The position numbers and the translations under genes are program-made. The notes under the pieces were generated by a model, which saw only the letters and a list, made by a program, of their open reading frames with translations, was not told the origin of the DNA and ran no database searches. A stretch of 64,000 nt of DNA from Nannocystis pusilla (GTDB lineage Bacteria > Myxococcota_A > Polyangia > Nannocystales > Nannocystaceae): NCBI RefSeq assembly GCF_051105105.1, contig NZ_CP185339.1; one strand, written 5' to 3'. This document shows, one piece after another, positions 20,137 through 53,055 of the stretch; position 1 is the first letter of the stretch, and each line of letters opens with the position of its first letter.

Positions 20137-20825
20137 CAGCGCGCCTCCTGCTGTCCTTCGGGACCTGTCGTATCGGACATGTACGCGAGGACGAGGTTGG
20201 TGAGCGCCTCGCTGCCCTGGCACAGCGAGGTGATCTTGCGCTGGAAGGCGTTGTAGGCGGCGACCGCGGGGAGGGCCACGAGGAGGCCGACGGCGGTGGC
20301 GACGAGGGCCTCGGCGATGCTCGACATGACGGCGTTGGAGGCGACCTGCGAGGCGGCGCCGGTGCCCCCGCCGTGGCCGGGGGCGGCGTGGCCGAGCTCC
20401 TCGAAGGCGGCGATGACGCCGATGACCGTGCCGAGCAGGCCGACGAACGGGGCGTTGTTGCCGAGGGTGCCGAGGAAGATAAGGCCGCGCTCGAGCTGGC
20501 CGCGCTCGAGCGCGAGGGCGCTCTGCATGGCGTACTCGGCGGCCTTGGGCCCGCGGTCGGCGAGGCGCAGGCCGGCGGCGGCGATCGCCGCGGCGACGCT
20601 CGGCGAGGCGGCGAGCAGGCTCAGGGCGCCGTCGCGGTCGCCGCTCTGCAAGAGCGCGGCGACGCGACCGGCGAGCCCGCGCAGGTCGCCGCCGCGGGCG
20701 CGCAGGACCAGCCAGCGCTCGACGGTGAGGGCGACGCTGACGAGCGAGAGCAGGCCGAGCAGCCACAGCACCCAGCCGGCGCCGGCGCGGAGGAAGAGCT
20801 GCTGGAGGGCGTCGATCGAGGTCAT
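20136..20825 (-). CDS. exbB: MotA/TolQ/ExbB proton-channel family protein
   Basis: 229 aa with GTLGNNAPFVGLLGTVIGVIAAF and AEALVATAVGLLVALPAVAAYNAF. The C-terminal 14 aa (YMSDTTGPEGQQEAR) are encoded by hairpin-family elements at 20150-20195. Confidence 0.85.
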   Translation of the reverse strand: MTSIDALQQLFLRAGAGWVLWLLGLLSLVSVALTVERWLVLRARGGDLRGLAGRVAALLQSGDRDGALSLLAASPSVAAAIAAAGLRLADRGPKAAEYAMQSALALERGQLERGLIFLGTLGNNAPFVGLLGTVIGVIAAFEELGHAAPGHGGGTGAASQVASNAVMSSIAEALVATAVGLLVALPAVAAYNAFQRKITSLCQGSEALTNLVLAYMSDTTGPEGQQEAR

Positions 20826-20829
20826 GGGG

Positions 20830-21564
20830 TCATTCTTCGGCGGTCCAGGCGAACCGCGGCGGGACGGCGATCATGGCGAAGCGGACGGCGGCCAGCGCGT
20901 CGGCGGCGGGGGAGGCCGGATCGTCGGCGGCCAGGGCGGCGAGGTCGTGCGGGCCGGGGCCGAGCGCGGCGAGGGCGTCGAAGTCGACGCCGGCCCACCA
21001 GGCGGCGCCGTCGATGGTGACGTCGAGGGCGCCGCCGACGTCGAGGTCGAACGGGCCGACCCGCAGGCCCTCGATCGTGCGGCTGCCGCGGAGCACGGGG
21101 GCGACGTCGAGGTCGGCGGTGAACTCGAAGGACATGTCCGCAGAGACAGCCGTGCCGGCGAACCGGGCCGCGCGCCCGCCCGGGGCCCCGTCCTGGGCGC
21201 CCGGCTTGGCCTGCGTCTTGAGCCAGGTGACGCCGTAGTCGAGCATGGCCGAGCGGACCTGGCCGGGCAGGACGTCGAGCTCGCCGAGCGCCTGGGGCCC
21301 CGGGTCGCGCAGGTCGACGGGGGCGACCGCGGCGAACTCGGCGGCCGCGGTGGCGCACAGCTCGGAGGAGGCGGCCGCGGTGGCGCACAGGTAGAGCGGG
21401 CCGAGGCCGACTTCGGCCCGCGTGAGGGTCACGGTCCAGGCGCCCACGGTCAGCTCGGCCGCGGCCCCGCGCGCCCGCAGCGGGGCCTGAAAGGCCGGCT
21501 CGCCGGTGGCGCCGCAGGCGGCGCAGAGCAGGAGGAGCATGGCTGGTCGGAGGGACATGCGCAA
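20830..21564 (-). CDS. Lipoprotein of unknown function, translationally coupled upstream of exbB
   Basis: Lipobox LLLCAACG. Stop is 5 nt from the exbB start. Confidence 0.55.
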   Translation of the reverse strand: MRMSLRPAMLLLLCAACGATGEPAFQAPLRARGAAAELTVGAWTVTLTRAEVGLGPLYLCATAAASSELCATAAAEFAAVAPVDLRDPGPQALGELDVLPGQVRSAMLDYGVTWLKTQAKPGAQDGAPGGRAARFAGTAVSADMSFEFTADLDVAPVLRGSRTIEGLRVGPFDLDVGGALDVTIDGAAWWAGVDFDALAALGPGPHDLAALAADDPASPAADALAAVRFAMIAVPPRFAWTAEE

Positions 21565-21625
21565 AAAGACCGGTGACGATGGACAGGTGCGAGAGGACAG
21601 GTCCGGAGGGACAGGCGGCTAGAAG
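21555..21625. repeat. Direct repeats GGACAGG x3 plus GGGACATG between the TBDR stop and the lipoprotein start
   Basis: gggacatgcgcaaaaagaccggtgacgatggacaggtgcgagaggacaggtccggagggacaggcgg. Confidence 0.6.
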
Positions 21626-24246
21626 TGCAGGGTGAGGGTGCCCATGACGCTGAGCGGGGGGCCGGCGGCGAAGTGGCGGGCGGGCAGGAGGGAGGGGATC
21701 GGGCGGGTGCCCCAGTCGGACACGAAGTTGTACTCGGTGGCGGCCCAGCGGCGGGCCAGCAGGTTGAAGGCCTCGACGCCGACCTCGACGACCGACCAGC
21801 GCACCGCGGCGCTGGCGTCGAGGAGGTGGACGGGGTCGGCGAACTGTCCGTAGGGAAGTGGCCGCGGGGACAGGTAGGAGTAGCCGAGGCCGACGCGCAG
21901 GCCGAGCGGGCGGCCCTTGACCTGGGCGAGGTCCTTGTCGATGCCGATGTCGGCGCGCACGACCACCGGCGGGACGTAGGGCAGCAGCTGGCCGGGGACG
22001 TAGGGCGGAGAGGGGTTCTCGGCGGTGGCCGGCGGCGGGGCGCGCAGGACGGCGTGGACGTAGGTGACGCTGCCGGCGGCGACGAGCCACGGCAGCGGGC
22101 GCGCGATCAGCTGGACCGCGGCGCCGGCCCGCCGCGTCGGACCGACCTTCTCGAGCCGGCCTTCCTCGGGGTCGAAGGCGAGGTCCTGGGCGAGGAAGGT
22201 GGCGAAGCCGGCGGCGTTGAGCTGGAGGCGGCCGCCGAGCGGGCTCATGCGCACGCCGCCCTCGGTGCTGTGGACCTTGGCGAACGGGGCCCGCTCGCCC
22301 TCGTCGAGCTGGCGCGCCTGCGGCGAGCGGTAGCCCTGGCCGTAGGCGGCGAACAGGCTGACCCAAGGGACAGGCGCGACCTCGAGGCTGACGCGCGGGC
22401 CGGCGGCCACGCCGGTGGCGGTGCGGCGGTGGCCGACGAGGTGGCTCTCGATCTGGTAGGGGGCGATGAAGTTGCCGAGGCGGTCGTCGATGTCGTAGTG
22501 GAGGACGTCGGCCCGACCGCCGCCGCGCAGGCGCACGCGCTTGCCGAAGCGGAGGTCGAGGTCGCCGTAGAGGCCGACGTCGCTGGCGAGCACGGTGGCG
22601 TCGACGCGCCGGTCCCAGGTCTCGTTCTGCGGCGCCTGCAGCAGGTTCTGCGCCTGCTGGATGTTGTGGATCCGCGCGGCGGCGCCGACCTCGAGGGCGG
22701 CGTGGAACCACGGGGCGGGGCGCCAGCCGGCTGTCCGATGGGACAGGCGTATGCCGCCGCCGAAGTCGCGGTTCTGCTGCTCGATGAGGTCGCCGCGGCC
22801 GACCCACTGCGGCATGACGACGCCGCGCTGGGTGTAGCCGGTGAAGTTCTCGCGGCTGTGGAAGTCGACGAGGGCGGTCCACACCGCCATGCGGGTGACG
22901 GCCCCGCCCTCGCCGCGGCGCTCGAGCTCGAGCGAGAGGTGGCCGCGCGCGGCCGAGGCGGACTGACTGTTGGCCGAGGGGTCGCCGTAGCTGTCGTAGA
23001 AGCCGACGACGCCGGCGGCGACGTCGTCGCGGCGCAGGACGCCGGCGAGGCCGGCCCGCGCGGCGTAGGCGGCGACGTGGACCTTGCCGCGCCAGCCGCC
23101 CGCGGCCGAGAAGGCGAACTGGCCCATGGCCATGCCCGAGAGGCCGCCGCGGTTCATGCCGAAGCCGCGGGTGCGGCGGACGGCGGCGGCGGCGAAGGTC
23201 TCGTCCTCCTGGCCCTTGGGGGCCCACAGGACGAGCTGGCGGAAGGTGGCGAAGGAGCCGCCGGTGCTGCGCAGCTGGACGCCGCGGCGCGGGACGGCGA
23301 GGTCGAAGTCGATGCTGCCGGCGACCGCGAAGTCGCCCTGCCGCGGGTCGTAGACGCCCTCGGTGACGCGGATCGATCGCACGGTCTCGGGGACGATCCA
23401 GTTGAGGTCGGCGTAGCCCTGGCCGTGCAGGTGCGAGACCTGGTTGAGCGGCAAGGCGCCGGCGGTGATCTCGATGTCCTGGCCGTGCGCCGCGTTGAAG
23501 CCGCGCAGGGTGATCTCGTGCGCCACGGCCTCGCCCTCGGCCCGGGCGACGTAGACGCCGGGGGCGCTGCTCAGCATGTCGGCGGCGCTCTGCCGCGGCG
23601 GGGCGGCGAGGACGTCGCGCTCGACCACGAAGTCGCTGGCGGCCCGCGGCGGCGGCCGGCGGCTGCGCGCGGCGACGTCGAGCACCGGCTCGGGCTGGCT
23701 GGCCGAAGCGGCAGGTTGGGACGAGGGGGACGCGCTGTCCGAAGGGACAGGCCCGGAAGGGCTGGCCGAAGGGGCAGGTGGGGGCGACGCCGGCTGGCTG
23801 GCCGAAGAGCCAGGTTGCGAGGGACCCGGCTGGCTGGCCGCAGGGGCAGGTTGCCCGGGCGGGGCCGAAGGGGCAGGTTCACCCGCGGGCGCCTCGGCAG
23901 GCTGGGCCGGCGGGGCGAAGTTGAAGGGCACGCGGATCTTGACGGCCACCGCGACGTCGTCGCGGCGCGCGGGGTCGAACCGCCACTGCTTGACCGCGGC
24001 GACGGCGGCGTCGTCGAAGGCCGCGCCCCCGCTCTTCAGCACCTCGACGGCGCCGACCCGCCCGTCAGCCTCGACGGTGACGGCCAGCTCGACGGCGACG
24101 GTGTCGCTGCGCGCCTCGGCGAGCGGATAGACGGCGTCGACCCGGGTCCGCGGGCTCGGCGGGACCACCGCGGGCGCGGCGCGGCCCGGCGAGGCCCACA
24201 GGCACGCCGCGAGGCAGGTGCAGAGCGTGGCGCGTGCGCGTGGCAC
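21619..24246 (-). CDS. TonB-dependent outer-membrane receptor with N-terminal TonB_C-like domain
   Basis: 875 aa. Signal. AVYPLAEARSDTVAVELAVTVEADGRVGAVEVLKSGGAAFDDAAVAAVKQWRFDP matches the TonB C-terminal fold. Pro/Ser linker. Plug domain (ITLRGFNAAHGQDIEITAGALPLNQVSHLHGQGYADLNWI). Beta-barrel ending in terminal Phe (TLTLHF). Confidence 0.8.
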   Translation of the reverse strand: MPRARATLCTCLAACLWASPGRAAPAVVPPSPRTRVDAVYPLAEARSDTVAVELAVTVEADGRVGAVEVLKSGGAAFDDAAVAAVKQWRFDPARRDDVAVAVKIRVPFNFAPPAQPAEAPAGEPAPSAPPGQPAPAASQPGPSQPGSSASQPASPPPAPSASPSGPVPSDSASPSSQPAASASQPEPVLDVAARSRRPPPRAASDFVVERDVLAAPPRQSAADMLSSAPGVYVARAEGEAVAHEITLRGFNAAHGQDIEITAGALPLNQVSHLHGQGYADLNWIVPETVRSIRVTEGVYDPRQGDFAVAGSIDFDLAVPRRGVQLRSTGGSFATFRQLVLWAPKGQEDETFAAAAVRRTRGFGMNRGGLSGMAMGQFAFSAAGGWRGKVHVAAYAARAGLAGVLRRDDVAAGVVGFYDSYGDPSANSQSASAARGHLSLELERRGEGGAVTRMAVWTALVDFHSRENFTGYTQRGVVMPQWVGRGDLIEQQNRDFGGGIRLSHRTAGWRPAPWFHAALEVGAAARIHNIQQAQNLLQAPQNETWDRRVDATVLASDVGLYGDLDLRFGKRVRLRGGGRADVLHYDIDDRLGNFIAPYQIESHLVGHRRTATGVAAGPRVSLEVAPVPWVSLFAAYGQGYRSPQARQLDEGERAPFAKVHSTEGGVRMSPLGGRLQLNAAGFATFLAQDLAFDPEEGRLEKVGPTRRAGAAVQLIARPLPWLVAAGSVTYVHAVLRAPPPATAENPSPPYVPGQLLPYVPPVVVRADIGIDKDLAQVKGRPLGLRVGLGYSYLSPRPLPYGQFADPVHLLDASAAVRWSVVEVGVEAFNLLARRWAATEYNFVSDWGTRPIPSLLPARHFAAGPPLSVMGTLTLHF
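23700..23880. repeat. Degenerate tandem copies of the hairpin element (ctgtccgaagggacagg, ctggccgaaggggcagg ...) inside the TBDR CDS, encoding its SQP-rich linker
   Basis: At least 5 units read directly from the sequence. The minus-strand translation gives PAPAASQPGPSQPGSSASQPASPPPAPSASPSGP. Confidence 0.6.
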
Positions 24247-26076: not shown

Positions 26077-27783
<1,707 letters not shown>

Positions 27784-29529: not shown

Positions 29530-29720
29530 GGGACGAAGAGGCATGTCCGCAAGGGCATGTCTTCGAGGGCAGGTCGTGAAGGGCATGTCGGGGAGGGCAT
29601 GTCCCCAAGGCCCGGGCGCGGTTGCGGCCCGCGGGCCTCCCGTCCAGGGGAGGCCGGCGTGTCCACGAGGACATGCTCGAAGAAGCATGTCCGATACGGC
29701 ATGCCCCCTTCGGGCACGCC
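29530..29720. repeat. Dense array of at least 8 hairpin-family elements (GGGCATGTC direct repeats, ~15-nt period, plus CATGTCC..GGACATG palindromes) between convergent genes
   Basis: gcatgtccgcaagggcatgtcttcgagggcaggtcgtgaagggcatgtcggggagggcatgtccccaagg ... gtgtccacgaggacatgctcgaagaagcatgtccgatacggcatgcccccttcgggcacgcc. Confidence 0.75.
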
Positions 29721-29723
29721 GGC

Positions 29724-31337
29724 CTACTCGCCGCCGAGGCAGACGCCGTCGCGGCGGGGGTCGCCGAAGCCCGACAGGCGGCCGTCCTTGGCGCGCTGGA
29801 CGGTGTGGACGCCGCCGAAGAACATGTTGAGGCCGGGCCAGGCGGTGGTGCGGGCGAACAGGCCGGCGAGGGTCTCGGCGGCGGCGGGGGAGAGGCCGGC
29901 CTCGAAGCTGACGTGGTCGTCCTCGACGTGGATCCGCGGGGCCGCGATCGCCGCGGGCAGGGGCAGGCCGAAGTCGAGGACGTTGGAGACGACCTGGAGG
30001 ACGGCGGTGCGGATCCGCTTCGAGCCGCCGCTGCCGCACACCAGCAGGCTGCCGTCGTCGCCGACGATCGCGGTCGGCGACATCATCGACGCCAGGCGCT
30101 GGTCGAGCGGCCAGGCGTGCGGGCCCGGCGGGTTGACGTCGTCCTCGCCGAGCATGTTGTTGAGCATCATGCCGGTGCCCGGGACGATCTCGCCGCAGCC
30201 CTCGCCGTTGCTGACGGTGGCGGTGGCGGCGTTGCCGGCGGCGTCGATGACGCTGACGTGGGTGGTGCCGCGGCTGCGCAGCGGGCCGGCCAGCGCCGCG
30301 GCGTGGGCGGCCAGCAGGTCGCCGCCGAGCCAGGCCGCCTCGACGCCCTCGCGCGGCGGGCCGGCGGCCGCGCGCGCGCGCACGGTCTCGGCCTGGACGC
30401 GGGCCAGCAGGGCCAGGTGCTCGGCTGTCTGAAAGCCCATGTCCTTCAGGCCATGTCCGGAGAGCAAGGCGAGGGCGAAGGCGATCATCAGGCCGCCGGC
30501 GGCCGGCGGCGGGTTGGTGAGCAGGGTGGCGTCGCGGTAGCGCAGGCGCAGCGGGGCGCGGGCCTGCACGCGGTAGGCGGCGAGGTCGTCGGCGGTGATG
30601 TGGCCGCCGGCCTCGCGGCTCTGGCGGACGATCGCGGCGGCGACGTCGCCGCGGTAGAACAGGTCCTCGCCCTCGCGCGCGAGCTGCTCGAGCATGTCCC
30701 CGAGGACAGGGTTGACGAGGCGCCCGCCGGCCTTGACCGGCGTCGGCGCGCCGCCCTCGACGGCCGCGGGATCGCCGAAGATCGCGCGGGCGGCCGGCAG
30801 CTCGAGGTAGATCGGCGCCACCAGCGTCATGAGGTAGGCCATGAACGGCGACACGGCGATGCCGTCGCGGGCGGCCTGCACCGCGGGCGCGGCGATGACG
30901 GGCATCGGCAGGCGCGCGAGCTCGCGGTGGACCGCGAACATGCCGGCGACGAGGCCCGGCGTGGCGGCGCAGCCGACTCCGATGTGGAACGCTTGCTGCG
31001 CGGTGCCCCAGTCGGTGATCACCTCGCGCGCGTTGGCCTCGGCCGGCGGCCGGCGCACGCGCGGCGTGTGGACGAAGGCGTCGTAGAGCCGCGGCTCGCC
31101 GCCGGCCGGGAGCGCGAGGATGAAGCCGCCGCCGCCCGGCGAGGCGAGCACCGGCTCGGCGACACACGCGGCCATCAGCGCGGCGAGCACGGCGTCGAAC
31201 GCGTTGCCCCCGGCCGCGAGCGCGTGCATGGCGGCCGCTGCGGTGACGGGGTGACCGGCGGCGACGCAGCCGCGGCGGTCGTGATGGAACTCGGGTGCCG
31301 TGACCGCTGTGTATCGTGCGTGAGGGGTCGCGCGCAA
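29724..31337 (-). CDS. ggt: Gamma-glutamyltranspeptidase family protein
   Basis: 537 aa. The nucleophile-region block TTHVSVIDAAGNAATATVSNGEGCGEIVPGTGMMLNNMLGE and GSGGSKRI are characteristic of GGT. Confidence 0.85.
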   Translation of the reverse strand: MRATPHARYTAVTAPEFHHDRRGCVAAGHPVTAAAAMHALAAGGNAFDAVLAALMAACVAEPVLASPGGGGFILALPAGGEPRLYDAFVHTPRVRRPPAEANAREVITDWGTAQQAFHIGVGCAATPGLVAGMFAVHRELARLPMPVIAAPAVQAARDGIAVSPFMAYLMTLVAPIYLELPAARAIFGDPAAVEGGAPTPVKAGGRLVNPVLGDMLEQLAREGEDLFYRGDVAAAIVRQSREAGGHITADDLAAYRVQARAPLRLRYRDATLLTNPPPAAGGLMIAFALALLSGHGLKDMGFQTAEHLALLARVQAETVRARAAAGPPREGVEAAWLGGDLLAAHAAALAGPLRSRGTTHVSVIDAAGNAATATVSNGEGCGEIVPGTGMMLNNMLGEDDVNPPGPHAWPLDQRLASMMSPTAIVGDDGSLLVCGSGGSKRIRTAVLQVVSNVLDFGLPLPAAIAAPRIHVEDDHVSFEAGLSPAAAETLAGLFARTTAWPGLNMFFGGVHTVQRAKDGRLSGFGDPRRDGVCLGGE

Positions 31338-32307: not shown

Positions 32308-32375
32308 GATGTCCCCGAGGACATGTGCCAGTGCGCATGTCCGTCGATGCCTGTCCTTTCAGGCATGTTTGAACG
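32308..32375. repeat. Three hairpin-family elements between the mtnP stop and the PfkB start
   Basis: gatgtccccgaggacatg (perfect ATGTCC/GGACAT), gcatgtccgtcgatgcc and gcctgtcctttcaggc. Confidence 0.7.
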
Positions 32376-32396
32376 AACAGCAACGAAGAGAGAGCC

Positions 32397-33338: not shown

Positions 33339-33394
33339 GCCGGGGCGCCGCCCACCGCGAGCAGCGTGAGCAGGCTGTGCCTGTCACCCGCTGC

Positions 33395-33500
33395 CGAAGA
33401 TGCGGCGGCCGCATGCGTGTCCTCGCGGTCGTCTCCGACCCCGACGCCATCGCCCGCATCCTGCACGGCGCCGGGTTCCTCCTGCGCCCGCCCTTCGTCC
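33395..33500 (+). pseudogene. Possible 3'-terminal remnant of an IS transposase gene (C..CGGRMRVLAVVSDPDAIARILH..G motif)
   Basis: Frame of track ORF 32858..33811 reads CRRCGGRMRVLAVVSDPDAIARILHGAGFLLRPP. I recall this as similar to conserved C-terminal tails of some IS-family transposases. There is no upstream catalytic domain. Low confidence. Confidence 0.3.
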
Positions 33501-33807
33501 TCGCTGCCCATCTCGGGCCGATGGCCGGGCGCTTCGTCATGCTTGCGTTTCTCCTTGCGGCCAGGACTCTGCCAAATCCTCCCGTCCGCGCGCTGCACTG
33601 CGCGCTGCTCACCGGGCCGCGCCGTACTCGCCCTCGCGCCCGAAATTCTCGCTTCTCAGGCACTGGACCCGGCGCGGGAAGTACGGCATCAAACTTCTTG
33701 AGCGCAGGGCAAGACGGACCGGTTCACCTTCAAGTGACCCACGCAGGCAGCCGGGACCGGCATGCCGGTTCCGGCCCCAAAACAGACGTTGAAGAGGGCA
33801 GAATAAG

Positions 33808-34693: not shown

Positions 34694-34862
34694 CGGCGCG
34701 GCCTGGTTGGCGGCGAACTCCAGGGCGCGCGGGCGCGAGCGCGTGGGACGGGTCCGCAGAACGCTGTGTCCTCGCGTCGCGGCGGGGAGACGTGCGCAGC
34801 ATCAACCTTCATCGTTGCCGGATCTGCGACCTGTCGCATATTCGATGCGCCTGGAGAATCTC

Positions 34863-35030: not shown

Positions 35031-35042
35031 GCGGGGCCGCAG

Positions 35043-42718: not shown

Positions 42719-43113
42719 CGGTCGAAAAGAAGGAGGCTGGCGGACTGGTGCTCGTCGTCGACGACGACCCCAACGTCTGCGAGACGCTGCAGACGGTGCT
42801 CGAGGTGTCGGGCTATCGCGTCGCCGCGGCGGGCAACGGTCAGGAGGCCCTGAACGCGCTGCGCAGCGGGGTCCGCCCGTGCCTGGTCCTGCTCGATCTG
42901 ATGATGCCGGTGATGAACGGGCAGGAGTTCCGCGCCGAGCAACGCGAGGACCCGGCGATCGCCGGGGTCCCGGTGGTGGTGGTCTCGGGCGATCACCGCG
43001 TGGCCGAGAAGGCGGTCGAGATGGGCCTGGAAGGGCTGAGCAAGCCGATCGACATCGACGATCTGCTGCAGCTCGTGGGCCGCTTCTGCGGGCCGCCGGC
43101 GTGCACGTGCTGA
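42715..43113 (+). CDS. Single-domain response regulator (CheY-like receiver)
   Basis: MTVEKKEAGGLVLVVDDDPNVCETL...LDLMMPVMNG...VVVVSG. ATGA overlap with the kinase stop. GGAGG RBS. Confidence 0.85.
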   Translation: MTVEKKEAGGLVLVVDDDPNVCETLQTVLEVSGYRVAAAGNGQEALNALRSGVRPCLVLLDLMMPVMNGQEFRAEQREDPAIAGVPVVVVSGDHRVAEKAVEMGLEGLSKPIDIDDLLQLVGRFCGPPACTC

Positions 43114-43157
43114 CTTCGACGTTCGCGACCTTCGAGGGTCCGCGAGCGCGCGCCGCG

Positions 43158-44660
43158 TCACTGCGGGAGGACGAGCTTGAGGCCCTGGCCGGTCATGTCG
43201 GAGTAGGTGTAGGGATTGACGAGGCCGGTGACGACGAGCTTGATCTCGTAGGTGTCGGGGTCGACCTTGTAGGCCTTGTTGGCCTTGTCGACGACCCACA
43301 CGTAGCCCTCGTTGTCGATGCTGACGCCCCACGGCGAGCCGCAATCGGGTAGCGTGATGTTCTGGTTGGTCCAGGTCTTGGTGTCGCCGTCGAGCTCGAT
43401 GAGGCGGCACGGGCCGTTGGCGGCGCCCCACACCCGGTTCTCGTCGTCGACGGCGATGCCGAGCGCGCCGCCGCCGTTGTTGCCGCCGTTGCCCATGCCC
43501 TGCCACTGCTTGGCGACCGGGTCGTAGAAGTACATGTGATCGGTGCCGGAGAAGCTGCCGACCCACATGTTGCCGTTCTGGTCGACGCCCATGCCGTACT
43601 TGTACTGGCCGGGGGAGAGGCCGAGCTCCTCGATCTCGAGGGTGGCGGCGTCGATGCGGATCGAGACCTCGTTGTCGTAGCCGATGACGAACAGGTCGCC
43701 GGCGGAGTTGACGGCGCCGCCGTAGGGGCCGAACGTGTTGGTGGTCCAGCCGGGGCGCTGGACGTCGTCGAGGATCGCGCCGGTGTCGCCTTCGAGGCGC
43801 GCGAAGTGGGCGACGCCGTTCACGTCCTTGTAGCCGACCCACAGCCGCGGGACCGGGGTCTCGCAGGTGACGGGGTCCTGAGCCACCCCCTCCCACGCGG
43901 TCGGGCGCGCGCCGCCGTAATAGCCGTCGGCCAGCGGCAGCGCGGTGTGCCACACCACGCATTCGTCCTGACCCCACGGGCGAATGTCGCCAGGGCCGGT
44001 CGAGGTGTCGATCACGCCGTTGCCGTTGTTGTCGACGCACTTCTCCGGCAATGCCATGACCTTGGTGACGCTGCCCGGATTGCGGTTGCTGACCGCGACG
44101 TCGCCGAACTGGTTGACGGAGGTGCGCGACGGCTCGCCGCTGCCGGGCACCGGGTTGGTGTAATAGCGGCCCTCCTCGACGCCCGTCATCGTGTTGATCT
44201 TGGAGACGGTGCCCTGGGTGGTGTTGGCGATCCAGATGTAATCGAAGGTGACGGGCTGATCGTCGGGCGGACAGACCGGCGGGCCGCCCATGTCGAGCTT
44301 CATGCCGCCCGTGGTGGTCGTCGTCGTCGCGGTGGTCGCGGTGCCGTCGGTGCTGGTGACCGTGACGCCCTCGGTGGTCGTGGCGGTGGTCGTGCTCGTC
44401 GGCGCGGTGGTGGTCGGCGCGGTGGTGGTGGTGCCCTGCGTCTCGCCCTGCGTGCCGGTGCCCGTGGGCACGTCGCCCGAGGTCTCGGTGGCGGTGCCAG
44501 TGCCGGTCATCGTCCCGGCGGTGCCGGTCGGGCTGGTGCCCTGGGTGGCCGTGCCGTCGCTCGTCGTGCCGCCGCCGGCGTCGCTGCATCCGTGGATCGC
44601 CCCGAGAGAGGCGAGGGTAAATGCGGTGGCTTGCCAGCGAAGACGAGTCGAACTACGCAT
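43158..44660 (-). CDS. Lipoprotein with long Thr-rich linker and beta-propeller-like domain
   Basis: Lipobox LASLGAIHGC. Linker TTTAPTTTAPTSTTTATTTEGVTVTSTDGTATTATTTTTTGG. Repeated GxxxVD/W-rich blocks. Confidence 0.55.
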   Translation of the reverse strand: MRSSTRLRWQATAFTLASLGAIHGCSDAGGGTTSDGTATQGTSPTGTAGTMTGTGTATETSGDVPTGTGTQGETQGTTTTAPTTTAPTSTTTATTTEGVTVTSTDGTATTATTTTTTGGMKLDMGGPPVCPPDDQPVTFDYIWIANTTQGTVSKINTMTGVEEGRYYTNPVPGSGEPSRTSVNQFGDVAVSNRNPGSVTKVMALPEKCVDNNGNGVIDTSTGPGDIRPWGQDECVVWHTALPLADGYYGGARPTAWEGVAQDPVTCETPVPRLWVGYKDVNGVAHFARLEGDTGAILDDVQRPGWTTNTFGPYGGAVNSAGDLFVIGYDNEVSIRIDAATLEIEELGLSPGQYKYGMGVDQNGNMWVGSFSGTDHMYFYDPVAKQWQGMGNGGNNGGGALGIAVDDENRVWGAANGPCRLIELDGDTKTWTNQNITLPDCGSPWGVSIDNEGYVWVVDKANKAYKVDPDTYEIKLVVTGLVNPYTYSDMTGQGLKLVLPQ

Positions 44661-44888
44661 CGCTCGATGAGAGCAGAAACCCTCGATCGAGACAAGCGCG
44701 AGAGCGCTCGCAGGGCCTGGGAAGGGGCCAGGCGAGGCCGCTTGATCATCTGGCAGGTCGAGGTCGGGAATAGGCGCGGGTAGGCATCGGTGCGTCCCTT
44801 GCGCGGGACCGCGAGCGCGCCGCCGTCGGTGATGGCGACGAGGGCCCGGTCGCGGTCGAGGAGGCGCGCGGGTCGTTGCGACGACGGA

Positions 44889-46421
44889 TCAGCGCGGCGG
44901 GAACGGGAGGGTCCAGATGCCCGGCCTGGACGCCTCGAGGTCGAGGTACAGGAGCCCGACGCCCTCGACGAGCGCCGCCTCGCCTGTCCTTTCGACCAGG
45001 AGCTCGTAATCACCGGTGTCGGGGTCGACCAGCGCGTACTCGAACTCGTGCTTGATCTCGTCGTCGCTGATGTCGAGGCGCGAGAGGAGGCGGCCGTCCT
45101 CCAGGGGGAGCCACGAATCGCCGATCCGCGGGATCACCGTGGTGGCCTCGCCCGAGGCCAGATCGACGGCGATTCGTCGCATGCTGCCGTCGCCGTTCGG
45201 GCGCTCGTAATGCACGCGACCGCTGTCGTGGGTCAGGCGGAACCGCCAGTCCGGCTCGGGGCCGCGGTAGACCTCGACCATGGCGCCGGTCAGCGCGTTC
45301 CACACCGCGATCACGTGGTCCTCGGGATCGGGCACGACGAGCGCGAATCCGGGGTAACTCCCCTCGATGAAGGACGAGGAGCCGACGTGGTCGGGGATCG
45401 CGAGGGGCTCGAGGGTGTCGAGGCGGTAGGCCTCGACGAAGCGAGAGTCGAGGCCCCGGAGCGCGAACACCGTGGTGTCCGGGCCGGCCGCCACGCGCCA
45501 ATGGCCGGCGCCGGTCGTCGGACCGCGGCCCCAGGATTCGGCCGCGAAGTCGTTGACGGTGACCTCGCGCTCCTCGCCGGTCTCGAGGTCGCGGATGCGT
45601 ACGGGCTCGGACGCGTCGTCGCCCATGACCTGGTAGAGCAGGTGGAGGTGGTCGTCGGCGGTCCACACCGATTCGATGTATCGCGCGCCGTCGAGGATGT
45701 GCGCGGCCTCGCCGGTCTCGCGGTCGAAGGTGTCGACGCTGCCGTCGTCGCGGAGCATGAAGGCCAGGTTGTCGGCCTGGTAGTAACGGACGATGTCGTC
45801 GCCGATGAGCACGGCCTGCGTGTCGGGGTCGCCGCTGTGGAAGTAGCGGCGCGAGCGCGCGCCGCCGAGCCCCGCCACGCCGTCGGTGACGCGGCCCGGC
45901 GCCGTACTGGTCAGGGTGAATCCGTACACCGTGCCGAAGTCGCCGCCGCGCCACTCCACTGACAGCAAGTCGTCTTCGTCGCCCGGGGGCGGGGAGAAGT
46001 CACCGACTCGCCGGATCTCGTCGCGGCCGGGGACCTCGAGGCGATCGATCAAGTCCAGCGTGTAATCCTGCCCGAATTTGTAGAACACCGGGCCTTGCTC
46101 GGAGTTCATCACCGAATAGGCCGTGTATGGGCGGGCCTCCTCGGCGACGAGCTCGGGGGCGCCGCCGCAGAGGGGGACGAGGTCGAACCGGGTCTTTTGC
46201 TCCGCGTCGTCGAAGGCGTAGAGCAGGTGATCGTCGGTGACCCACATGTTGAGGCTGGACGATCGCTCGTCCGGATCCCAACCGGCGGGCAGCGGCACGA
46301 GGAGGGACGGCTGGTCGAGCGCGCAACCATCCTCGGGCTGGTCCTCAAGCGGGCGATCGCCGCACGCGAAGAGAAAGAGGGTCGATAGGGCGAAGACGGC
46401 GGACAGGCTTCGAGTTCCCAT
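44889..46421 (-). CDS. Lipoprotein, hypothetical (beta-rich)
   Basis: Lipobox LFLFACG. 510 aa. No family recognised. Confidence 0.5.
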   Translation of the reverse strand: MGTRSLSAVFALSTLFLFACGDRPLEDQPEDGCALDQPSLLVPLPAGWDPDERSSSLNMWVTDDHLLYAFDDAEQKTRFDLVPLCGGAPELVAEEARPYTAYSVMNSEQGPVFYKFGQDYTLDLIDRLEVPGRDEIRRVGDFSPPPGDEDDLLSVEWRGGDFGTVYGFTLTSTAPGRVTDGVAGLGGARSRRYFHSGDPDTQAVLIGDDIVRYYQADNLAFMLRDDGSVDTFDRETGEAAHILDGARYIESVWTADDHLHLLYQVMGDDASEPVRIRDLETGEEREVTVNDFAAESWGRGPTTGAGHWRVAAGPDTTVFALRGLDSRFVEAYRLDTLEPLAIPDHVGSSSFIEGSYPGFALVVPDPEDHVIAVWNALTGAMVEVYRGPEPDWRFRLTHDSGRVHYERPNGDGSMRRIAVDLASGEATTVIPRIGDSWLPLEDGRLLSRLDISDDEIKHEFEYALVDPDTGDYELLVERTGEAALVEGVGLLYLDLEASRPGIWTLPFPPR

Positions 46422-46568
46422 GACAGGCCCGACAGGGCTGCGTAAGCCTGGATCGGCGGGGCCGGGCGTTCAAGGGCGGGCCGGAGGACGGGCGTGCGCG
46501 GGCGATCGCGGGCTCGCGTGTGAGCGCGCCACGTTGCCCTCGCCGGCGTTTGATCGTAGGCGTAGGCG

Positions 46569-47930
<1,362 letters not shown>

Positions 47931-47933
47931 GGT

Positions 47934-50257
47934 TCAGGGGACGTTGAAGGTCGCGACGTCGGTGGGGCTGCCGCTGGCCGGCGGGACGTGAGCGGTGACG
48001 CTCCACGAATGATTGGACCACTGCGAACCGCCGAGGATGCACGGGTTGTCGGCCGGGGTGAAGGTGCACTCGCCCCAGCCGTCGTCGCCGAGCGGGACGC
48101 ACTGGAGGTCCCACTCGGGGAGGCCGCCGCGGAAGGCGGTGTTGACGACGTAGTCGTAGAGGCCGTGCTGCTGGTGCGTCGCGTTCACGTGGATGGTGAA
48201 CTGATGCGGGCTGTTCACGTCCTCGGTGGTGGCGGCCCCGGGCGCGCGGAACACCAGCTTCGGGTATTGCTGGCAGTCGAGGAGGACGCCGTCGCGCGGG
48301 CGGACGATGACGGGGCCGCCCGACAGCGGCTCGCAAGCCGGCCCCGTGGCCTCGCACTCCTTCCAGATCTCGCCGGCGGCGAGGATGATCTTGATCGCGT
48401 CGAACAGCTCGCTGCCGAAGGCCTCCCACCCGAACTCGGCGCCGCCCTCCCAGAAGGCCATGTTGCAGGTCTCGCAGCCGTTCATGGTGTTGCGCAGGCC
48501 GACGGTGGCCAGCGGCGCGACGTAGGGGCCGTCGAGGAAGCCGAGCGTCATCACGAACTTGGCCAGCAAGGTGGCGCTGAGCCTCGGGGCCCATGGCGGC
48601 GCCGAAGTTGTCGAGGAAGCCGTTCACGTGGGTCTCTAGCCCGGTCCGCCAGCCGGTGTGATCCTTGAAGGCGGTGCCGGTGGCGCTCGCAGCGACGGTG
48701 CCGGTGAACTTGTAGGCGGCCTCGATCTCCAGCTCGGGCCGCAGCATGATCGACACCGGGATGGCCAGCGGCAAAGTCCCGAGGTAGAACTCGCCGAACT
48801 CGAGGGACTGGGTGAGGCCGGCCTTGACGATGATGCTGGCGTGGATGGTCGGCGTGATCGCCACGTCCGCGTGGGGGATGCTGAGCCAGTCGACGTCGAG
48901 CTCGAAGCGCTCGAACGTCGAGGCCGGGGGAGAAGTGGAGCTCGCCGTGGCCGCCGAACTTGAACACCAGCCTGGGGCCGCCAGGAGGGGGGATCGGGTC
49001 CTCGTCGAGCGCGAGCGTTCCGAGCTCCACGAGCTCGCCGGAGCCCGCGGGCTCGGGGAGCACGACGATCTCGTCGGGGCACGGCGCCTCGACGCAGGCG
49101 ATGTCGGAGGTGTCGATCGGCAGGTCGCGCACGCCGAAGAAGCCGCCGGCGAGGACGGCGTCGAGGCCGACCGGCTCGCCGAGGAGCACGAGGTCGGCGT
49201 CGTCGTAGGTGACGGATTCGACGCGCAGCATGTAGCCGCGCGCGCCGCCGTGGCCGACGACGACCTCGCCCGCGGCGACGTCGGGGAGCGTCGCCGCGTC
49301 CTTGAAGTGGAGCACGACCTGGCTCAGGTCGGGGGCGGGCTTGACGGTGACGTCGGCGCCGAGGAAGTCGGGCCGCTGCTCGAGGAAGTGGACATCGGGC
49401 TTGTAGTCGAGGTGGTTGGCGTAGATGTCGGTGCCGGCCCAGATCCGCCGCTGGCCGTCGCTGACGACGAGCTCGGGCCGGTGCTTGCCGACGGCGTAGG
49501 TCCACTGCGGCAGGGCGGCGGTCTTGACGAGCTCGGTGGTGCGGCTGCAGGGCTCGTGGATCACGTCGGGCTGGCCGTCGGCGTCGAAGTCGAACTCGCA
49601 GCGCAGCTGGGCTGCCGGGTCGGCGGTGAGCCGCCAGCCGAAGTGGGCGGACACGGGAGCGTCGCCCCAGCCGGCCTCGACGGGATCGAAGCGCTCGACC
49701 GTGAGGGGGGCCTCGTCGCAGGTGTCGTCGCCGCCGATCGCGGCGAAGATCAGGCGCGACTGGGCGGCGTAGGAGAGCTTGGGCCGCTGGACCGGGAGCG
49801 GCTCGCCGAACGCGAGGTCGAGCTCGTAGTAGCAGTCGGGCAAGCGCACGCGCAGGAGGTAGGTGTCGCCGGTGAGGCGGGTGGTGTGGACGTCGAAGGC
49901 GGTCGGCGGGTGGATCGGGTCGAGGCCGAGGTTGATGCCCTGGGTGGTGTAGGCGGCGAGGGTGAGGCGACGGTGGTCGGCGGCGCACTGGGGGGTGACC
50001 GCGAAGGACAGCTCGACGACGTCGCGGGGCCGCGCGAGCTCGGCGAGGCCGGTGGCGAGGTCGGTGGTGACGTCGAGGGTGCCGTCGTCGTGATGCAGGC
50101 GCAGCTTGGTGTCGGTGAGACAGTCGAGCCCGGGAGCGGCCATGAGGCTGGCCTCGCGCGGGGAGATTTCGGTCTGCGGCGCGAGCTCGGGGTCGCAAGC
50201 GGCGACGACTGCGAGGCTGACGGCAGAAATGAGGAGGCGCGGCGGAAGAGCGGGCAT
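47934..50257 (-). CDS. Large lipoprotein split over three frames by two 1-nt frameshifts, both at C-homopolymers (~48925 ccccc; ~48590 cccc)
   Basis: Start MPALPPRLLISAVSLAVVAAC (lipobox) in track ORF 48551..50938. Continues as ...FERFELDVDWLSIPHADVAITPT... in ORF 47788..48864, then ...LLAKFVMTLGFLDGPYVAPLA... to the stop in ORF 47934..48569. Removing one C at each site restores a single frame. Confidence 0.55.
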
Positions 50258-50582
50258 GGTCGTTCTCGCCGGCGGCAGTGCAGCGCCCATGCCACGCGCG
50301 TCGGCGGGGCGCAGGGCGGTTGGAGGCGGGTTGTGGTCGGGCGGTCGACACCCGCCGCGTGGGCGTGGTCCGGCCGACGACAGGGGCGGGAGAGCGAGGG
50401 TCGGGGCGCCGGGTGAGGGTCGGCGGCTCGTGGGCACCAGCGGGTGGCGAGCCCGGAGCGGACGGCCTCGGCCTCGCGCGCGTGGCCGTCGGCGGACGCG
50501 AGGTTCACGGCCGGCGCGCGGCGCTGCCAACCGGGGCGGCCTCGCGCCCCCAGTCGGGCCCGGGACTTGCACAGGCGCGGGC

Positions 50583-51512
50583 ATGCGACCTGTCTTGCAG
50601 TCCTGGACCCCTGTCCGCCTCCTCCTCGCGTCCCTGCTGTGGACCGCCTGTGCCCCCGAAGACGAGGAGGTCGAGCTCCGCGTCCTGCTCACCGGCGGCA
50701 ACTCGGGCGGCGGCCCGGTGTTCAACACCCACGCCCTCGACGACCACCAATTCTCCGAGCTCGGGCCGCTCGGGGTGCCGCACGTCGGCGCGGGGCTCGA
50801 CGGGGTGGCGCTCGCGGGCGACGTCGCGTTGACGGAGCTGGGAGTGGACACCGGCGAGCTCGTCGGTGTGGACGGGGTCGGCGAGGAGCACCGCGGGGCC
50901 GCGCTGCTGGGCTCGGAGTGGACCATCGGCTTCAACATGGGGCTCGTGTCGCTGCCGATGTTCCTGCTCGACGTGCTCGAGATCGACGGCGTGCCGCACT
51001 ACCAGTTCTTCCACCACCAGGGCGACGTCGAGGTGCCGAACTGTCCCGAAGGCCAGGGCGGCCCCGGCCTCGCGCGGGTGCTGTCGGGGCTCACCATCCA
51101 CGAGGCCACCGGCGAGGTGATGTCCGCGCCGGGGCTGCTCTACCTGGCCTGCGACACCGGCGCGACCGGCAAGGCGGCGGCGCTCGGGTACTATGATTTG
51201 GCGAAGACGACGCAAGACCTCGAATTGTTCGAGACGGCGATCCGGGTGGTCCGCGCCGATTATTGCTACGACGGGAGCGCGCACACGCAGGCCGGGGTCT
51301 CGGTGGTGCTGGAGGACGTGTGGGGGATCCACGGGACCACCGACGAAACCTTCAAGAGCCCGGTGGAGGCCGCGTGGGGCCGGGCGGGGCTGATCTGCCG
51401 CGGCAAGGGCCGGCTCGACGCGATCGATTGCCACGACAAGATCCCCACGTGTCCGGTGGGGGCGACGTTCGCGTCGCTGCCGGACGCGCTGTTCATCACC
51501 CGCCTGCCGTGA
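50583..51512 (+). CDS. ADYC-domain lipoprotein
   Basis: Start MRPVLQSWTPVRLLLASLLWTAC (lipobox) in track ORF 50106..51512. C-terminal motif VVRADYCYDGSAHTQAG is the ADYC signature. Confidence 0.7.
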   Translation: MRPVLQSWTPVRLLLASLLWTACAPEDEEVELRVLLTGGNSGGGPVFNTHALDDHQFSELGPLGVPHVGAGLDGVALAGDVALTELGVDTGELVGVDGVGEEHRGAALLGSEWTIGFNMGLVSLPMFLLDVLEIDGVPHYQFFHHQGDVEVPNCPEGQGGPGLARVLSGLTIHEATGEVMSAPGLLYLACDTGATGKAAALGYYDLAKTTQDLELFETAIRVVRADYCYDGSAHTQAGVSVVLEDVWGIHGTTDETFKSPVEAAWGRAGLICRGKGRLDAIDCHDKIPTCPVGATFASLPDALFITRLP

Positions 51513-53055
51513 ACGCGCTGGGATGGTTCGGCGAGCGAGGGGGATGTCCGCGGGGACATGTCACTCGAGGCGGCCGTGCCAGATTCGAGCGATCGCCGAC
51601 CTGGTACGCGCCGCACACCGCGAACTCGAGCGCGCCGGCCGGGGCGGGCTGGTAAGTCGGTGATTCGACGTAGATCGCCGACGGGGCGGCGAAGCCGGGG
51701 TCGGGGCCGGCGACGTTGACGATCTCGGCGGCCGCCCAGTCGACCGGCCCGCAGCGCCGGTTCGGGGACCGCAGCAGCTCGACGCCCTGGCCGCCGGCGC
51801 TGCCGCGGACGAGCCACAGGCGGTCGTCCGCGGGTCGGATGAAGCGGGCGCGATAGGTGTCGGGGAACACGTGCAGCGGGGCGGTGTGGCCGGCCCAGCT
51901 CGCGCCGGCGGGGCGGTGATAGTACGCGACGACGCCGTCGAAGTAGGCGAGCACGTGGGTGTCGCCGGCGTCGTCGTGGAACAGGTCGGCGCCGCTGCGG
52001 ACCTGCGCGGCCGGGTCGGGTGGCTCGAGGGACAGGAACGTAGGGACCTGTCCTAAAGTGACGTCAGCGACCACCGCGGCGTACGTGCCGTCGGGGTACT
52101 GACCGGTGAAGGTCTGGCCGACCAGCGCGAGCTGGCCGCCGGGCGTGGCCATGGCGTGGACGTAGCCGAGGTCGTTGGCGCCGCCGAGGTCGACCTCGAC
52201 CGGCCCGTTCCAGCCGCCGCCGAAGTTGTAGGTGTAGACCCAGCGACCGGGGCCGCCGCCCTCGCCGACGACGGTAAACCACACGACGCGCGCGCCGGGG
52301 CCGAGCACCGCGGCGCCGACGTAGTTCGAGGCGGGCGGGGTGGTGTAGACCTGGCCGCTGATGAGCACTGCGTTGCAGGCGTGCACCGACGGATCGGCGG
52401 TGTCGAGGTAGCACTCCTCGAGGAAGTGCTGCTGGATGTTGACGCCGTAGGTGAGGATCGTCGAGCCGACCAGCACGCTGGCGGCGTTCTGCTGGATTCC
52501 GTCGGTGTGCGGCTGTTCGGCGACGAGGCTCCACGCGGGCTCGCCGGCGCCGCGGCGGAGGTAGCGGATCGTGCGGTTGTGATCCACGTCCTCGCCCGCG
52601 TCGACGTGAAACCACAGGCTGTCGTCGGGCGCGCGCATGAGGCCGCGCAGGTGCGGGCCCCAGCCGCCGTGCATCTCGACGTAGGCGCGGTTGTCGTCGG
52701 TGAGGAGCGTCAGGGCGACCTCCGGCGGCGGGGCGACCTCGGTAGTACCGGTGCCGGTGATCGTGGGGTCGGGCGCGTCGCCGGTGGTCGAGGTGGTGAC
52801 GGGCTCGCCGGAGGGGGTCGTCGTCGTTGCGACCTCGGTGGTGGCGAGCGTGGTGGCTGGATCGACGCCGGTGCTCGCGGAGGTGAGCGGGGGGGCGTCG
52901 GTGGTGCCGGCGCTGTCCGCCGGGCAGGCGGCGAGCAGCAGCGCGGCTGCGAATCGCAGGCGCGGGCGGAGCGAGCGAGGGACACGCACATGGCGGACGC
53001 CAGCCTCGGCGGTGGGCATGAGGGCAGTGTGACGCGAGGCCGCGCGCGGGCTCAA
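51496..53055 (-). CDS. Lipoprotein, hypothetical, with Thr-rich linker
   Basis: AALLLAACP lipobox after an N-terminal extension; the start may be the Met 12 codons in. The 3' end overlaps a perfect hairpin ATGTCCgcggGGACAT at ~51545-51570. Contains an in-frame GGACAGG..CCTGTCC element at ~52030-52065. Confidence 0.5.
   Translation of the reverse strand: MSPRAASRHTALMPTAEAGVRHVRVPRSLRPRLRFAAALLLAACPADSAGTTDAPPLTSASTGVDPATTLATTEVATTTTPSGEPVTTSTTGDAPDPTITGTGTTEVAPPPEVALTLLTDDNRAYVEMHGGWGPHLRGLMRAPDDSLWFHVDAGEDVDHNRTIRYLRRGAGEPAWSLVAEQPHTDGIQQNAASVLVGSTILTYGVNIQQHFLEECYLDTADPSVHACNAVLISGQVYTTPPASNYVGAAVLGPGARVVWFTVVGEGGGPGRWVYTYNFGGGWNGPVEVDLGGANDLGYVHAMATPGGQLALVGQTFTGQYPDGTYAAVVADVTLGQVPTFLSLEPPDPAAQVRSGADLFHDDAGDTHVLAYFDGVVAYYHRPAGASWAGHTAPLHVFPDTYRARFIRPADDRLWLVRGSAGGQGVELLRSPNRRCGPVDWAAAEIVNVAGPDPGFAAPSAIYVESPTYQPAPAGALEFAVCGAYQVGDRSNLARPPRVTCPRGHPPRSPNHPSAFTAGG

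Follow-up and report, generated by a model that had tools for sequence, protein, structure and literature searches.

Hyper-abundant motifs that override codon choice are known from few lineages, among them the cyanobacteria, with highly iterated palindrome 1 (HIP1), and the Pasteurellaceae and Neisseriaceae, with uptake sequences. Uptake sequences often occur as inverted pairs downstream of genes. Rickettsia palindromic elements (RPE) are insertions of ~100 to 150 bp that add residues to the encoded protein relative to its orthologues. HIP1 (GCGATCGC) is over-represented inside open reading frames (ORFs) as well as in the gaps separating them, to an extent that codon usage does not explain; its sites are conserved above background from genome to genome, and its function is unknown (PMC5861425, PMC4390886). 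Uptake sequences build up in coding DNA through substitutions at positions that tolerate them, and the peptides that they encode become more frequent as a result (PMC2817400). Repetitive extragenic palindromic (REP) sequences are short, GC-rich palindromes of 3′ untranslated regions (UTRs) and intercistronic spacers, often clustered and seldom overlapping coding regions (PMC12306157); they are described as having a GTAG or CGTC tag at one end (PMC3733652), and they have a cognate RAYT transposase. Here, we describe a gapped palindrome, TGTCC-N4-GGACA, that recurs within and between the genes of a 64,000-nucleotide stretch of Nannocystis pusilla (contig NZ_CP185339.1 of assembly GCF_051105105.1), referred to below as the window.

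A preliminary description of the window, made from its sequence alone, had noted hairpin elements lying in frame in five places. It offered two explanations: that the elements insert into tolerant, disordered coding regions and are domesticated, or that the motif is under selection at the DNA or RNA level that overrides codon choice. We report that the excess of the motif in coding sequence persists when the encoded proteins are held fixed, and that at most coding sites where orthologues can be compared the motif appears to have been written over existing codons.

A gapped palindrome with a fixed spacing in Nannocystis

The repeat has the extended form C[CA]TGTCC...GGACA[GT]G. When at most one mismatch was allowed, CTGTCCNNNNGGACAG matched the window 22 times, against 0.26 expected (~85-fold over dinucleotide shuffles). 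In 222 kb of Nannocystis DNA, there are 64 copies of the exact form TGTCC-N4-GGACA, and each of the other half-site spacings from 0 to 17 occurs at most once; 377 kb from other taxa yielded a single N4 copy. With the half-sites in the opposite order, GGACA.TGTCC is found 15 times in Nannocystis DNA and at zero spacing only, and direct repeats of the half-site peak at a 14-bp period (n = 25). The unit is therefore GGACATGTCC plus N4 on a 14-bp lattice, and a single “hairpin” is the junction of two such units. Half-site counts alone are in ~2-fold excess only; the signal resides in the spacing. The loop varies freely in sequence but not in length, which is 4 nt throughout. The flank is asymmetric, with CAC[CA] preceding TGTCC in a profile of 94 copies. 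Maximum-order Markov k-mer enrichment is uninformative with a gapped motif of this kind.

Orthologous loci were found by a scan with the TonB-dependent receptor (TBDR) of the window, taking one genome per species and 10-kb flanks. Loci L001 to L005 are from N. pusilla, N. punicea, N. radixulma, N. bainbridge, and Nannocystis sp. RBIL2 (TBDR identity, 89 to 95%); L006, L007, and L012 are from metagenome-assembled genomes of Nannocystis or Nannocystaceae (67 to 70%); and L008 to L011 are from more distant relatives (53 to 64%). Other Myxococcota and Bradyrhizobium served as outgroups. The window, L001 to L007, and L012 all carry the motif family, L009 carries one copy, and L008, L010, L011, and L013 to L031 carry none; the GC content of most of these motif-free loci is similar. 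We concluded that the family is restricted to Nannocystis and close Nannocystaceae loci. An Rfam scan of the window gave no family match at the gathering score, and a scan of viral contigs for the double unit TGTCC-N4-GGACATGTCC-N4-GGACA gave no match and no sign of phage origin.

The density of the motif along the window is very uneven. A 19-kb stretch (32310 to 51040), which includes a 1,913-amino-acid kinase/AAA/GAF/histidine-kinase gene at 36977 to 42718 with typical GC content at third codon positions (GC3), has no exact or one-mismatch copy. Two segments of lower GC content (0.66 to 0.67), at 33400 to 35300 and 58000 to 62000, are likewise motif-free and are possibly recently acquired DNA; the former contains stretches rich in AT as well as a 9-bp repeat, rich in Asp, at 34931 to 35010.

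The motif overrides codon choice within genes

The window is 72% GC, with a GC3 of ~95%. To obtain an expectation for coding copies, synonymous codons were shuffled within each of 27 confident coding sequences (CDS; 13.6k codons) with the protein held fixed. The CDS contain 7 exact copies (expected, 0.085) and 8 copies with one mismatch (expected, 2.05), which corresponds to a ~60- to 80-fold excess of exact copies. Two of the exact copies are special cases, one lying over a start codon (14135) and one in a tail created by a frameshift (51545). Without them, 5 are left (Poisson P, ~3 × 10⁻⁸).

The coding copies are composed of codons that are otherwise rare in the window, namely, CCT (6% of Pro codons), ACA (2% of Thr codons), CAT (9.5% of His codons), and TTA (0.1% of Leu codons); half of all CCT codons lie in motif contexts. 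All three frames are used, giving the peptides [LMV]-S-x-[RGW]-T, x-V-[PLHQR]-x-D-x, and C-P-x-G-[HQ]. Of the peptide sites compatible with the motif, 33 of 49 carry it in Nannocystis loci and 0 of 37 in other Myxococcota (P = 5 × 10⁻¹²), counts that rest on crude ORF calls and nonindependent orthologous sites, roughly half of the unique sites being realized. The compatible peptides themselves are ~2-fold more frequent in Nannocystis than in its relatives (0.85 versus 0.43 per 1,000 codons).

Conservation was measured between the window and three more divergent congeners, for a small number of sites. Stems, loops, and flanks are conserved at 83, 67, and 61% of positions in intergenic copies (P = 1.6 × 10⁻⁸) and at 89, 81, and 79% in CDS copies (P = 6 × 10⁻⁶). 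Synonymous codons ending in A or T are conserved in 5 of 7 cases within stems and in 14 of 57 cases elsewhere (P = 0.02); for synonymous sites over all third positions, the difference is not significant (15/17 versus 1304/1773; P = 0.13). Rare codons, the excess over synonymous shuffles, and stem conservation together support the earlier proposal of selection at the DNA or RNA level, and we conclude that some pressure on the nucleotide sequence itself overrides normal codon usage.

Stem sequences are maintained beyond pairing. Among complementary TGxxC-N4-GxxCA pairs, 56 of 62 are canonical, and a covariation search found essentially no alternative complementary stems, which indicates that the sequence itself is maintained and not pairing alone. 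The common variants TGGCC...GGGCA and TGTCG...GGACA place G·G mismatches in the stem, and many members of the lattice are in-register half-sites that are unable to pair. The name “hairpin” consequently fits part of the family: local hairpins are formed by the exact coding copies (z, −1.8 to −2.0), but the segments in exbB (z, −0.9) and GGT (z, +0.4) are not predicted to fold in this way.

Coding copies are written in place

Gene identities were assigned by a Pfam search of the window ORFs; all genes and sites in this section are on the minus strand. Five sites lie beyond those listed in the preliminary description: two in the TBDR gene (22732 and 22359), one in GGT (30695), one in a 244-amino-acid gene (21135), and one in ORF 11675 to 12940 (11974).

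The TBDR gene (21619 to 24246) has an exact copy at 22732 to 22745, inside the Pfam match to the beta-barrel, where it encodes LSHRT (CTG TCC CAT CGG ACA). The same codons are used in 8 of 8 Nannocystis sequences. At the same site and with the same length, L012 and L008 have ASHRT encoded by GCC AGC CAC CGC ACC; L011 has ASHRT with a TCG Ser codon, and L009 has ASHRS with a CAT His codon, again with no indel. The adjoining codons are conserved, and the change from AGC to TCC is a switch between serine codon families. Since motif-free orthologues have ASHRT with ordinary codons, the peptide predates the motif. Identical peptides with unrelated codons in repeat-free orthologues had been taken in advance as a sign that the similarity is coincidental. 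Such a peptide exists here, but the similarity is not thereby coincidental: SHRT with ordinary codons in the orthologues shows a motif written over an existing peptide. The barrel also holds a one-mismatch copy at 22359 to 22372, encoding PVPWVS (CCT GTC CCT TGG GTC AGC); L006 and L007 have PLPWL (CCG CTG CCG TGG CTG) at this position with no indel. The TBDR gene of L012 has an independent copy of its own, FLSYGT (CTG TCC TAT GGG ACA), where all others have FAAYGQ.

GGT (29724 to 31337) has an exact copy at 30695 to 30708, encoding NPVLGDM. The window reads CCT GTC CTC GGG GAC ATG, and L007 reads CCC GAG CTC GGC GAC CTG, with no indel. The element reported earlier in this gene is borne out as a degenerate, three-unit 14-bp lattice at 30425 to 30458, one unit of which has at most one mismatch. 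It occupies a variable loop (SGHGLKDMGFQT) in which five of 14 codons are rare and end in A or T. The length of the loop is unchanged in L004, L006, L007, and L012, and L007 carries CTGTCCTTCGGGTCAGG there.

The 244-amino-acid gene between the TBDR gene and exbB (20830 to 21564) has a one-mismatch copy at 21135 to 21148, encoding AVSADMS. Its rare GCT codon is kept in 6 of 6 close species, in which the loop codons vary (A/S/G) and the stems are fixed; L008 reads GCG GTC CAG GGC GAT CAG at this site. In exbB (20136 to 20825), the last codons and the junction with exbD (19696 to 20136) had been described as made of two elements. Two units with one mismatch each do lie side by side in the register of the 14-bp lattice (20152 to 20179), covering the codons for YMSDTTGPEGQ, but the junction was overstated: the TGATG stop/start overlap lies ~14 nt outside the motif units. 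ExbB is 225 to 231 amino acids long in 12 of 12 orthologues, its tail is equally long with and without the motif family, and L006 and L007 have CTGTCCTCGGAGACAG at the same spot.

ORF 51496 to 53055 encodes a lipoprotein-like or secreted protein of 519 amino acids that has no Pfam match; it has ~120 homologues and hence is a real gene. The element noted in it earlier is present as GGACAGG...GGACCTGTCC at 52030 to 52053, encoding TLGQVPTFLSL and including a TTA Leu codon. This segment aligns without gaps across ~18 homologues. Where the window reads ACT TTA GGA CAG GTC CCT, N. exedens reads ACC ATG GGT CAA GTC CCG, so that the copy is a recent gain by substitution. ORF 11675 to 12940, which also has no Pfam match, has an exact copy at 11974 to 11987 that encodes DKPVPADTS (DKPVPSDTS in L004).

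No length difference from orthologues was found at TBDR positions 22732 and 22359, GGT positions 30695 and 30425 to 30458, position 21135 of the 244-amino-acid gene, the ExbB tail, or position 52030. None of these coding sites has the added residues of an RPE-type insertion, and the idea of in-frame insertion followed by domestication fails wherever orthologues allow it to be tested. The TBDR and kinase linkers stand apart.

Motif-bearing units in disordered linkers

The TBDR has its own TonB_C-like domain near the N terminus (residues 51 to 111), before the plug and barrel, an architecture found in 12 of 12 orthologues. The linker from this domain to the plug had been described as encoded by at least five degenerate elements (23700 to 23880). 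We find six units in 23699 to 23877 (minus strand), starting at 23699, 23735, 23762, 23798, 23834, and 23861 and thus spaced by 36, 27, 36, 36, and 27 nt. One matches CTGTCC-N4-GGACAGG exactly, and the rest have 2 to 4 mismatches. The peptide encoded by the units is (Q)P[AV]PS[AD]S, for which CAA and CCT codons are used; CCT makes up 12 of the 27 Pro codons of the linker versus 6% in the genes of the window, and GC3 is 0.77 in the linker versus 0.96 in the whole gene. Spacings of 27 and 36 nt keep the reading frame and do not follow the 14-bp lattice, which argues for tandem duplication of a motif-bearing unit. The number of units varies among Nannocystis species. Only in Nannocystis is the linker longer and built of the motif; in L008 to L011 it is shorter and motif-free.

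Two TBDR orthologues are anomalous. In Nannocystis sp. RBIL2 (L005, 10001 to 12660), a frameshift near residue 662 splits the gene. In the N. pusilla orthologue (L001, 10001 to 12659), the stop-to-stop ORF has 1,164 codons instead of ~885, ~280 more, and the tblastn alignment stops at query residue 850. Assembly errors or pseudogenization are likely in both cases.

The Ser/Thr kinase (26077 to 27783, minus strand) had been credited with two copies encoding EPVPSDT and EPVPTDT. Both are confirmed and exact, at 26385 to 26398 and 26424 to 26437. They lie 39 nt apart in a Pro-rich linker and read GAA CCT GTC CCT TCG GAC ACA and GAA CCT GTC CCG ACG GAC ACC. Across six species, the CCT codon of the first copy is retained in 12 of 12 sequences and that of the second copy in 9 of 12. 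Insertion or duplication is possible for disordered linkers only, in the TBDR and perhaps in the kinase.

Copies at gene starts and beyond a stop codon

An exact copy at 14135 to 14148 (minus strand) covers the predicted ATG of gene 12950 to 14149 (ATG TCC CGA AGG ACA); its position is kept in 6 of 6 close species while the flanks diverge. The predicted ATGs of this gene and of the 244-amino-acid gene both lie inside motif units (CAC ATG TCC ...), at 14135 to 14149 and 21550 to 21564, respectively. A further exact copy has its end 16 nt upstream of the ATG at 28597. These starts show no visible Shine-Dalgarno sequence.

The exact copy at 51545 to 51558 (minus strand) normally lies just past a stop codon and in the window is part of a 29-residue C-terminal tail. 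Orthologues of ORF 51496 to 53055 end in ...GDRSIWHGRLE*, with the TGA abutting CATGTCC-N4-GGACAT. The window has an extra A near 51575 to 51585 (TCGAATCTGG versus TCGATCTGG in N. exedens), and the ORF, with this +1 frameshift, reads past the usual TGA into the 3′-UTR element, so that IWHGRLE* is replaced by the 29 residues. The frameshift may be a real mutation or a sequencing error. It illustrates a way in which an element-made C-terminal tail can arise, as elements that abut stop codons readily become tails. After the stop codon of this lipoprotein-like gene, N. exedens (L080, 2980 to 3060) has five lattice units, where the window has 1 or 2.

Arrays between genes

Outside genes, the motif forms arrays. 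Those at 29540 to 29720, between a convergent plus-strand gene and GGT, are lattices of GGGCATGTCC plus N4. Their predicted RNAs fold with z scores of −3.7 (29535 to 29615, plus strand) and −3.9 (29640 to 29725, minus strand). A second reference array (1941 to 2256) has 8 or 9 hairpin units at 34- to 39-bp spacing and is noncoding, because its spacings are not all multiples of 3. The spacer between the TBDR gene and the 244-amino-acid gene (21565 to 21618) repeats GGACAGG at a 14-bp period; its sense RNA (z, +0.2) is not a predicted hairpin. The exbD-tonB spacer (19539 to 19690), upstream of tonB (18678 to 19514, minus strand), has three elements and has expanded to at least five tandem copies in relatives. 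By crude gene calls based on GC3, on which all statements about intergenic classes depend, arrays occur in 6 of 6 convergent gaps and in 0 of ~6 divergent gaps; single copies adjoin two start codons.

In relatives, longer tandem arrays have one hairpin per unit and periods of 27, 39, and ~78 bp. The copy number of orthologous intergenic arrays differs greatly between species. In the exbD-tonB spacer, for example, N. punicea (L002, ~14850 to 15330) has at least five units of ~78 bp, and N. radixulma (L003, 14620 to 14860) has a 39-bp period.

In the spacers of the TBDR-exbB-exbD-tonB operon (18160 to 21618), the sense strand is strongly C-rich, G-poor, and poorly structured, with CCTGTCC every 14 nt. 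The plus-strand GC skew of these spacers is +0.26 to +0.43, a composition that resembles Rho utilization sites. On direct reading, without a terminator scan, most copies lack the run of T that follows the stem in an intrinsic terminator.

A pressure on DNA as the probable explanation

The account that we judge probable is a Nannocystis-specific, sequence-specific pressure on DNA that writes and maintains the motif, a phenomenon of the class to which HIP1 and uptake sequences belong. In structured protein regions, the motif was not inserted but arose in place by substitutions, mostly synonymous or conservative, at compatible peptides and was then kept. The pressure acts on the nucleotide sequence, is specific to that sequence rather than merely to structure, and would presumably be exerted on double-stranded DNA. 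In disordered linkers (that of the TBDR and probably that of the kinase), motif-bearing units of 27 or 36 nt would have been multiplied by tandem duplication into Pro-rich modules of the PVPSDS type.

Dimeric DNA-binding proteins usually recognize a pair of half-sites, here of 5 bp each, that are separated by a free spacer and lie about one helical turn from each other. The most likely agent would be a dimeric protein, specific to the genus, that recognizes the two half-sites at this distance; it could exert its effect through functional binding, through a bias of the self-DNA or uptake type, or through biased repair. Both the action at the DNA level and the nature of the agent are inferred, and the protein is a candidate only. 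The 5-4-5 geometry resembles that of FNR-type sites of the CRP/FNR family, a lead and not a test. A resemblance to sigma-54 promoters was dropped because the spacing does not fit.

A bolder version, which we put forward tentatively and would sooner doubt than accept, is a genome-wide “signature” system. A protein of the genus would read the 14-bp palindrome on double-stranded DNA as a self-marker, as a specificity signal for uptake or recombination, or as a nucleoid organizer, and would cause codons and even amino acids to be rewritten at all places where the proteins permit it. Such a system would fill about half of the compatible peptide sites and build the linker modules.

As to the level of action, we lean slightly toward DNA over RNA. 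A REP-like role at the RNA level is unlikely overall, though it survives best among the alternatives. It would make the tetraloop hairpin a 3′-end protector, terminator, or processing signal that acts through a sequence-specific RNA-binding protein or RNase, with the coding copies serving their mRNAs in the same way. The placement of intergenic copies in 3′ UTRs and intercistronic spacers, away from divergent promoter gaps, is what such a role calls for. The folding of the arrays at 29535 to 29615 and 29640 to 29725, the local hairpins of exact coding copies, and loops of unconstrained sequence but a constant length of 4 nt also speak for it. It is harder to reconcile with stems that are fixed in sequence and show no compensatory covariation, with common variants that bring G·G mismatches into the stem, with unpaired half-site lattices that hold the 14-bp register (e.g., at 21565 to 21618), and with ExbB and GGT segments that do not fold. 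For the spacers of the minus-strand operon, folding is poorer in the sense RNA than in the antisense strand; GC skew confounds this comparison, and the orientation of G·U versus A·C mismatches is no better a guide to RNA-level function, as the G-rich strand folds better regardless of gene direction. Near-saturation of compatible peptides, moreover, suggests a general pressure and not an mRNA function acquired site by site.

Several points weigh against a pressure on DNA. The conservation tests use few sites, from orthologous loci that are not independent. The comparison of sense with antisense folding is confounded by GC skew, the G-rich strand gaining G·U pairs. Two 3′-UTR arrays fold significantly (z, ~−3.8), and intergenic copies concentrate downstream of genes, as a REP-like role in RNA predicts. 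Alignments of variable loops and tails (the GGT loop and the ExbB tail) could conceal offsetting indels, and the kinase linker lacks an outgroup.

Somewhat less likely again is a neutral drive, in which short templated conversion from thousands of copies, or biased repair or uptake, spreads the motif and selection removes only harmful copies. At TBDR position 22732, 8 or 9 of 15 nt have changed in one patch, including AGC to TCC, between fixed flanking codons. Array copy number differs between close species, copies lie at spots where proteins are tolerant (loops, tails, and linkers), and uptake sequences behave likewise (PMC2817400). Against this stand the stable positions and conserved stems over six species, a pattern that a HIP1 study reads as selection (PMC5861425). 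A 14-bp donor is also far below the usual lengths for recombination. Drive and selection both fit the data presented here.

Mobile hairpin elements, whether like REP/RAYT, like miniature inverted-repeat transposable elements (MITE), or like RPE, could have inserted in frame and been domesticated, but we regard this as improbable. A TBDR linker that is longer and motif-built in Nannocystis only, with a variable number of units, would suit such an origin, as would three 14-bp units that equal exactly 14 codons and intergenic arrays that expand and contract. However, eight coding sites show no length difference from motif-free orthologues, the SHRT peptide is older than the motif in the TBDR, and the linker units, spaced by 27 or 36 nt, do not follow the 14-bp lattice but are consistent with tandem duplication in frame. 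Target duplications were not observed, and the flanks have the consensus CAC[CA] instead of a GTAG or CGTC tag. The remaining alternative, that PVPSD-type linker modules are selected as protein and owe their nucleotide likeness to shared module ancestry or chance, accounts for the recurrence of PVP[ST]D[ST] in the kinase, the TBDR linker, and ORF 11675 to 12940 but is very improbable given that all three frames are used for unrelated peptides (LSHRT, PVLGDM, AVSADMS, and CPRGH), that the excess persists at fixed protein sequence, and that identical peptides in other myxobacteria never use motif codons (0/37).

Other repeats in the window

Two further sets of repeats are unrelated in sequence to the palindrome family. 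A tandem repeat, GGCGGTTCGGGTGT (4.6 copies; 94% matches), at 9283 to 9346, shares the 14-bp period of the lattice; it lies just downstream of gene 7212 to 9278 and is followed by a long inverted repeat (~9360 to 9470). Gene 54864 to 57143, which encodes a BlaR1/M56 peptidase-like protein, contains within its CDS a perfect 9-bp repeat, GACGCCGCC (8.2 copies), at 56480 to 56553, and 21/63-bp repeats at 56840 to 56993.

Comparison with known systems

When a Nannocystis gene has a patch of rare codons or a Pro-rich PVPSD linker, this is not necessarily a sign of horizontal transfer or of a functional peptide motif. Literature searches for palindromic and REP repeats in Nannocystis and myxobacteria found no description of this family. 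One lead proved to be a different thing: the N. exedens “repetitive sequences similar to msDNA” (multicopy single-stranded DNA; Lampson & Rice 1997, via PMC6868368) are described as local msr/msd duplications of retron Ne160.

Like RPE, the Nannocystis motif is a palindromic repeat that lies in ORFs and is translated, but it is only 14 bp long and adds no length at the coding sites that could be compared. With REP sequences and bacterial interspersed mosaic elements (BIME) it shares a short, GC-rich palindromic form, a consensus common to many copies, a location near gene ends in 3′ UTRs and operon spacers, and clustering. It differs in occurring in CDS far above chance, in some cases inside Pfam-matched domains of the TBDR and GGT; in having a stem of only 5 to 7 bp; and in that its copies arise in place and not by transposition. 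No GTAG or CGTC tag was found in the flank profile of the 94 copies.

The likeness to uptake sequences, the uptake signal sequence (USS) of the Pasteurellaceae and the DNA uptake sequence (DUS) of Neisseria, is that the motif is a short one gained by substitution at tolerant places in coding DNA and that compatible peptides are ~2-fold enriched. USS and DUS, however, are asymmetric, ungapped words for which pairing is optional, whereas the Nannocystis motif is an obligate palindrome of fixed spacing. HIP1 is similar in being a short palindrome that is over-represented both within and between ORFs (here, 22 copies versus 0.26 expected) and in being conserved, the stems here above their flanks. 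In contrast to HIP1, the Nannocystis motif is gapped (5 + 4 + 5), is chained into 14-bp lattices as well as longer arrays, and has its copies concentrated at the 3′ ends of genes. The sequences and phyla differ as well: HIP1 is GCGATCGC in a cyanobacterial host and is associated with orphan methyltransferases, and the present motif is TGTCC-N4-GGACA in a myxobacterium.

The motif is thus in part like HIP1, uptake sequences, and REP and is a member of none of these, apparently an undescribed case of the iterated-motif phenomenon in a myxobacterial genus. Its useful properties are an invariant 4-bp gap, 5-bp half-sites, and a 14-bp lattice, together with motif-free outgroups and codon states known before and after the change (AGC CAC CGC ACC to TCC CAT CGG ACA). 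The cause of HIP1 is unsolved after decades. If the signature system should prove true, Nannocystis would be an independent second example, with a culturable host and a geometry that eases the search for the binder.

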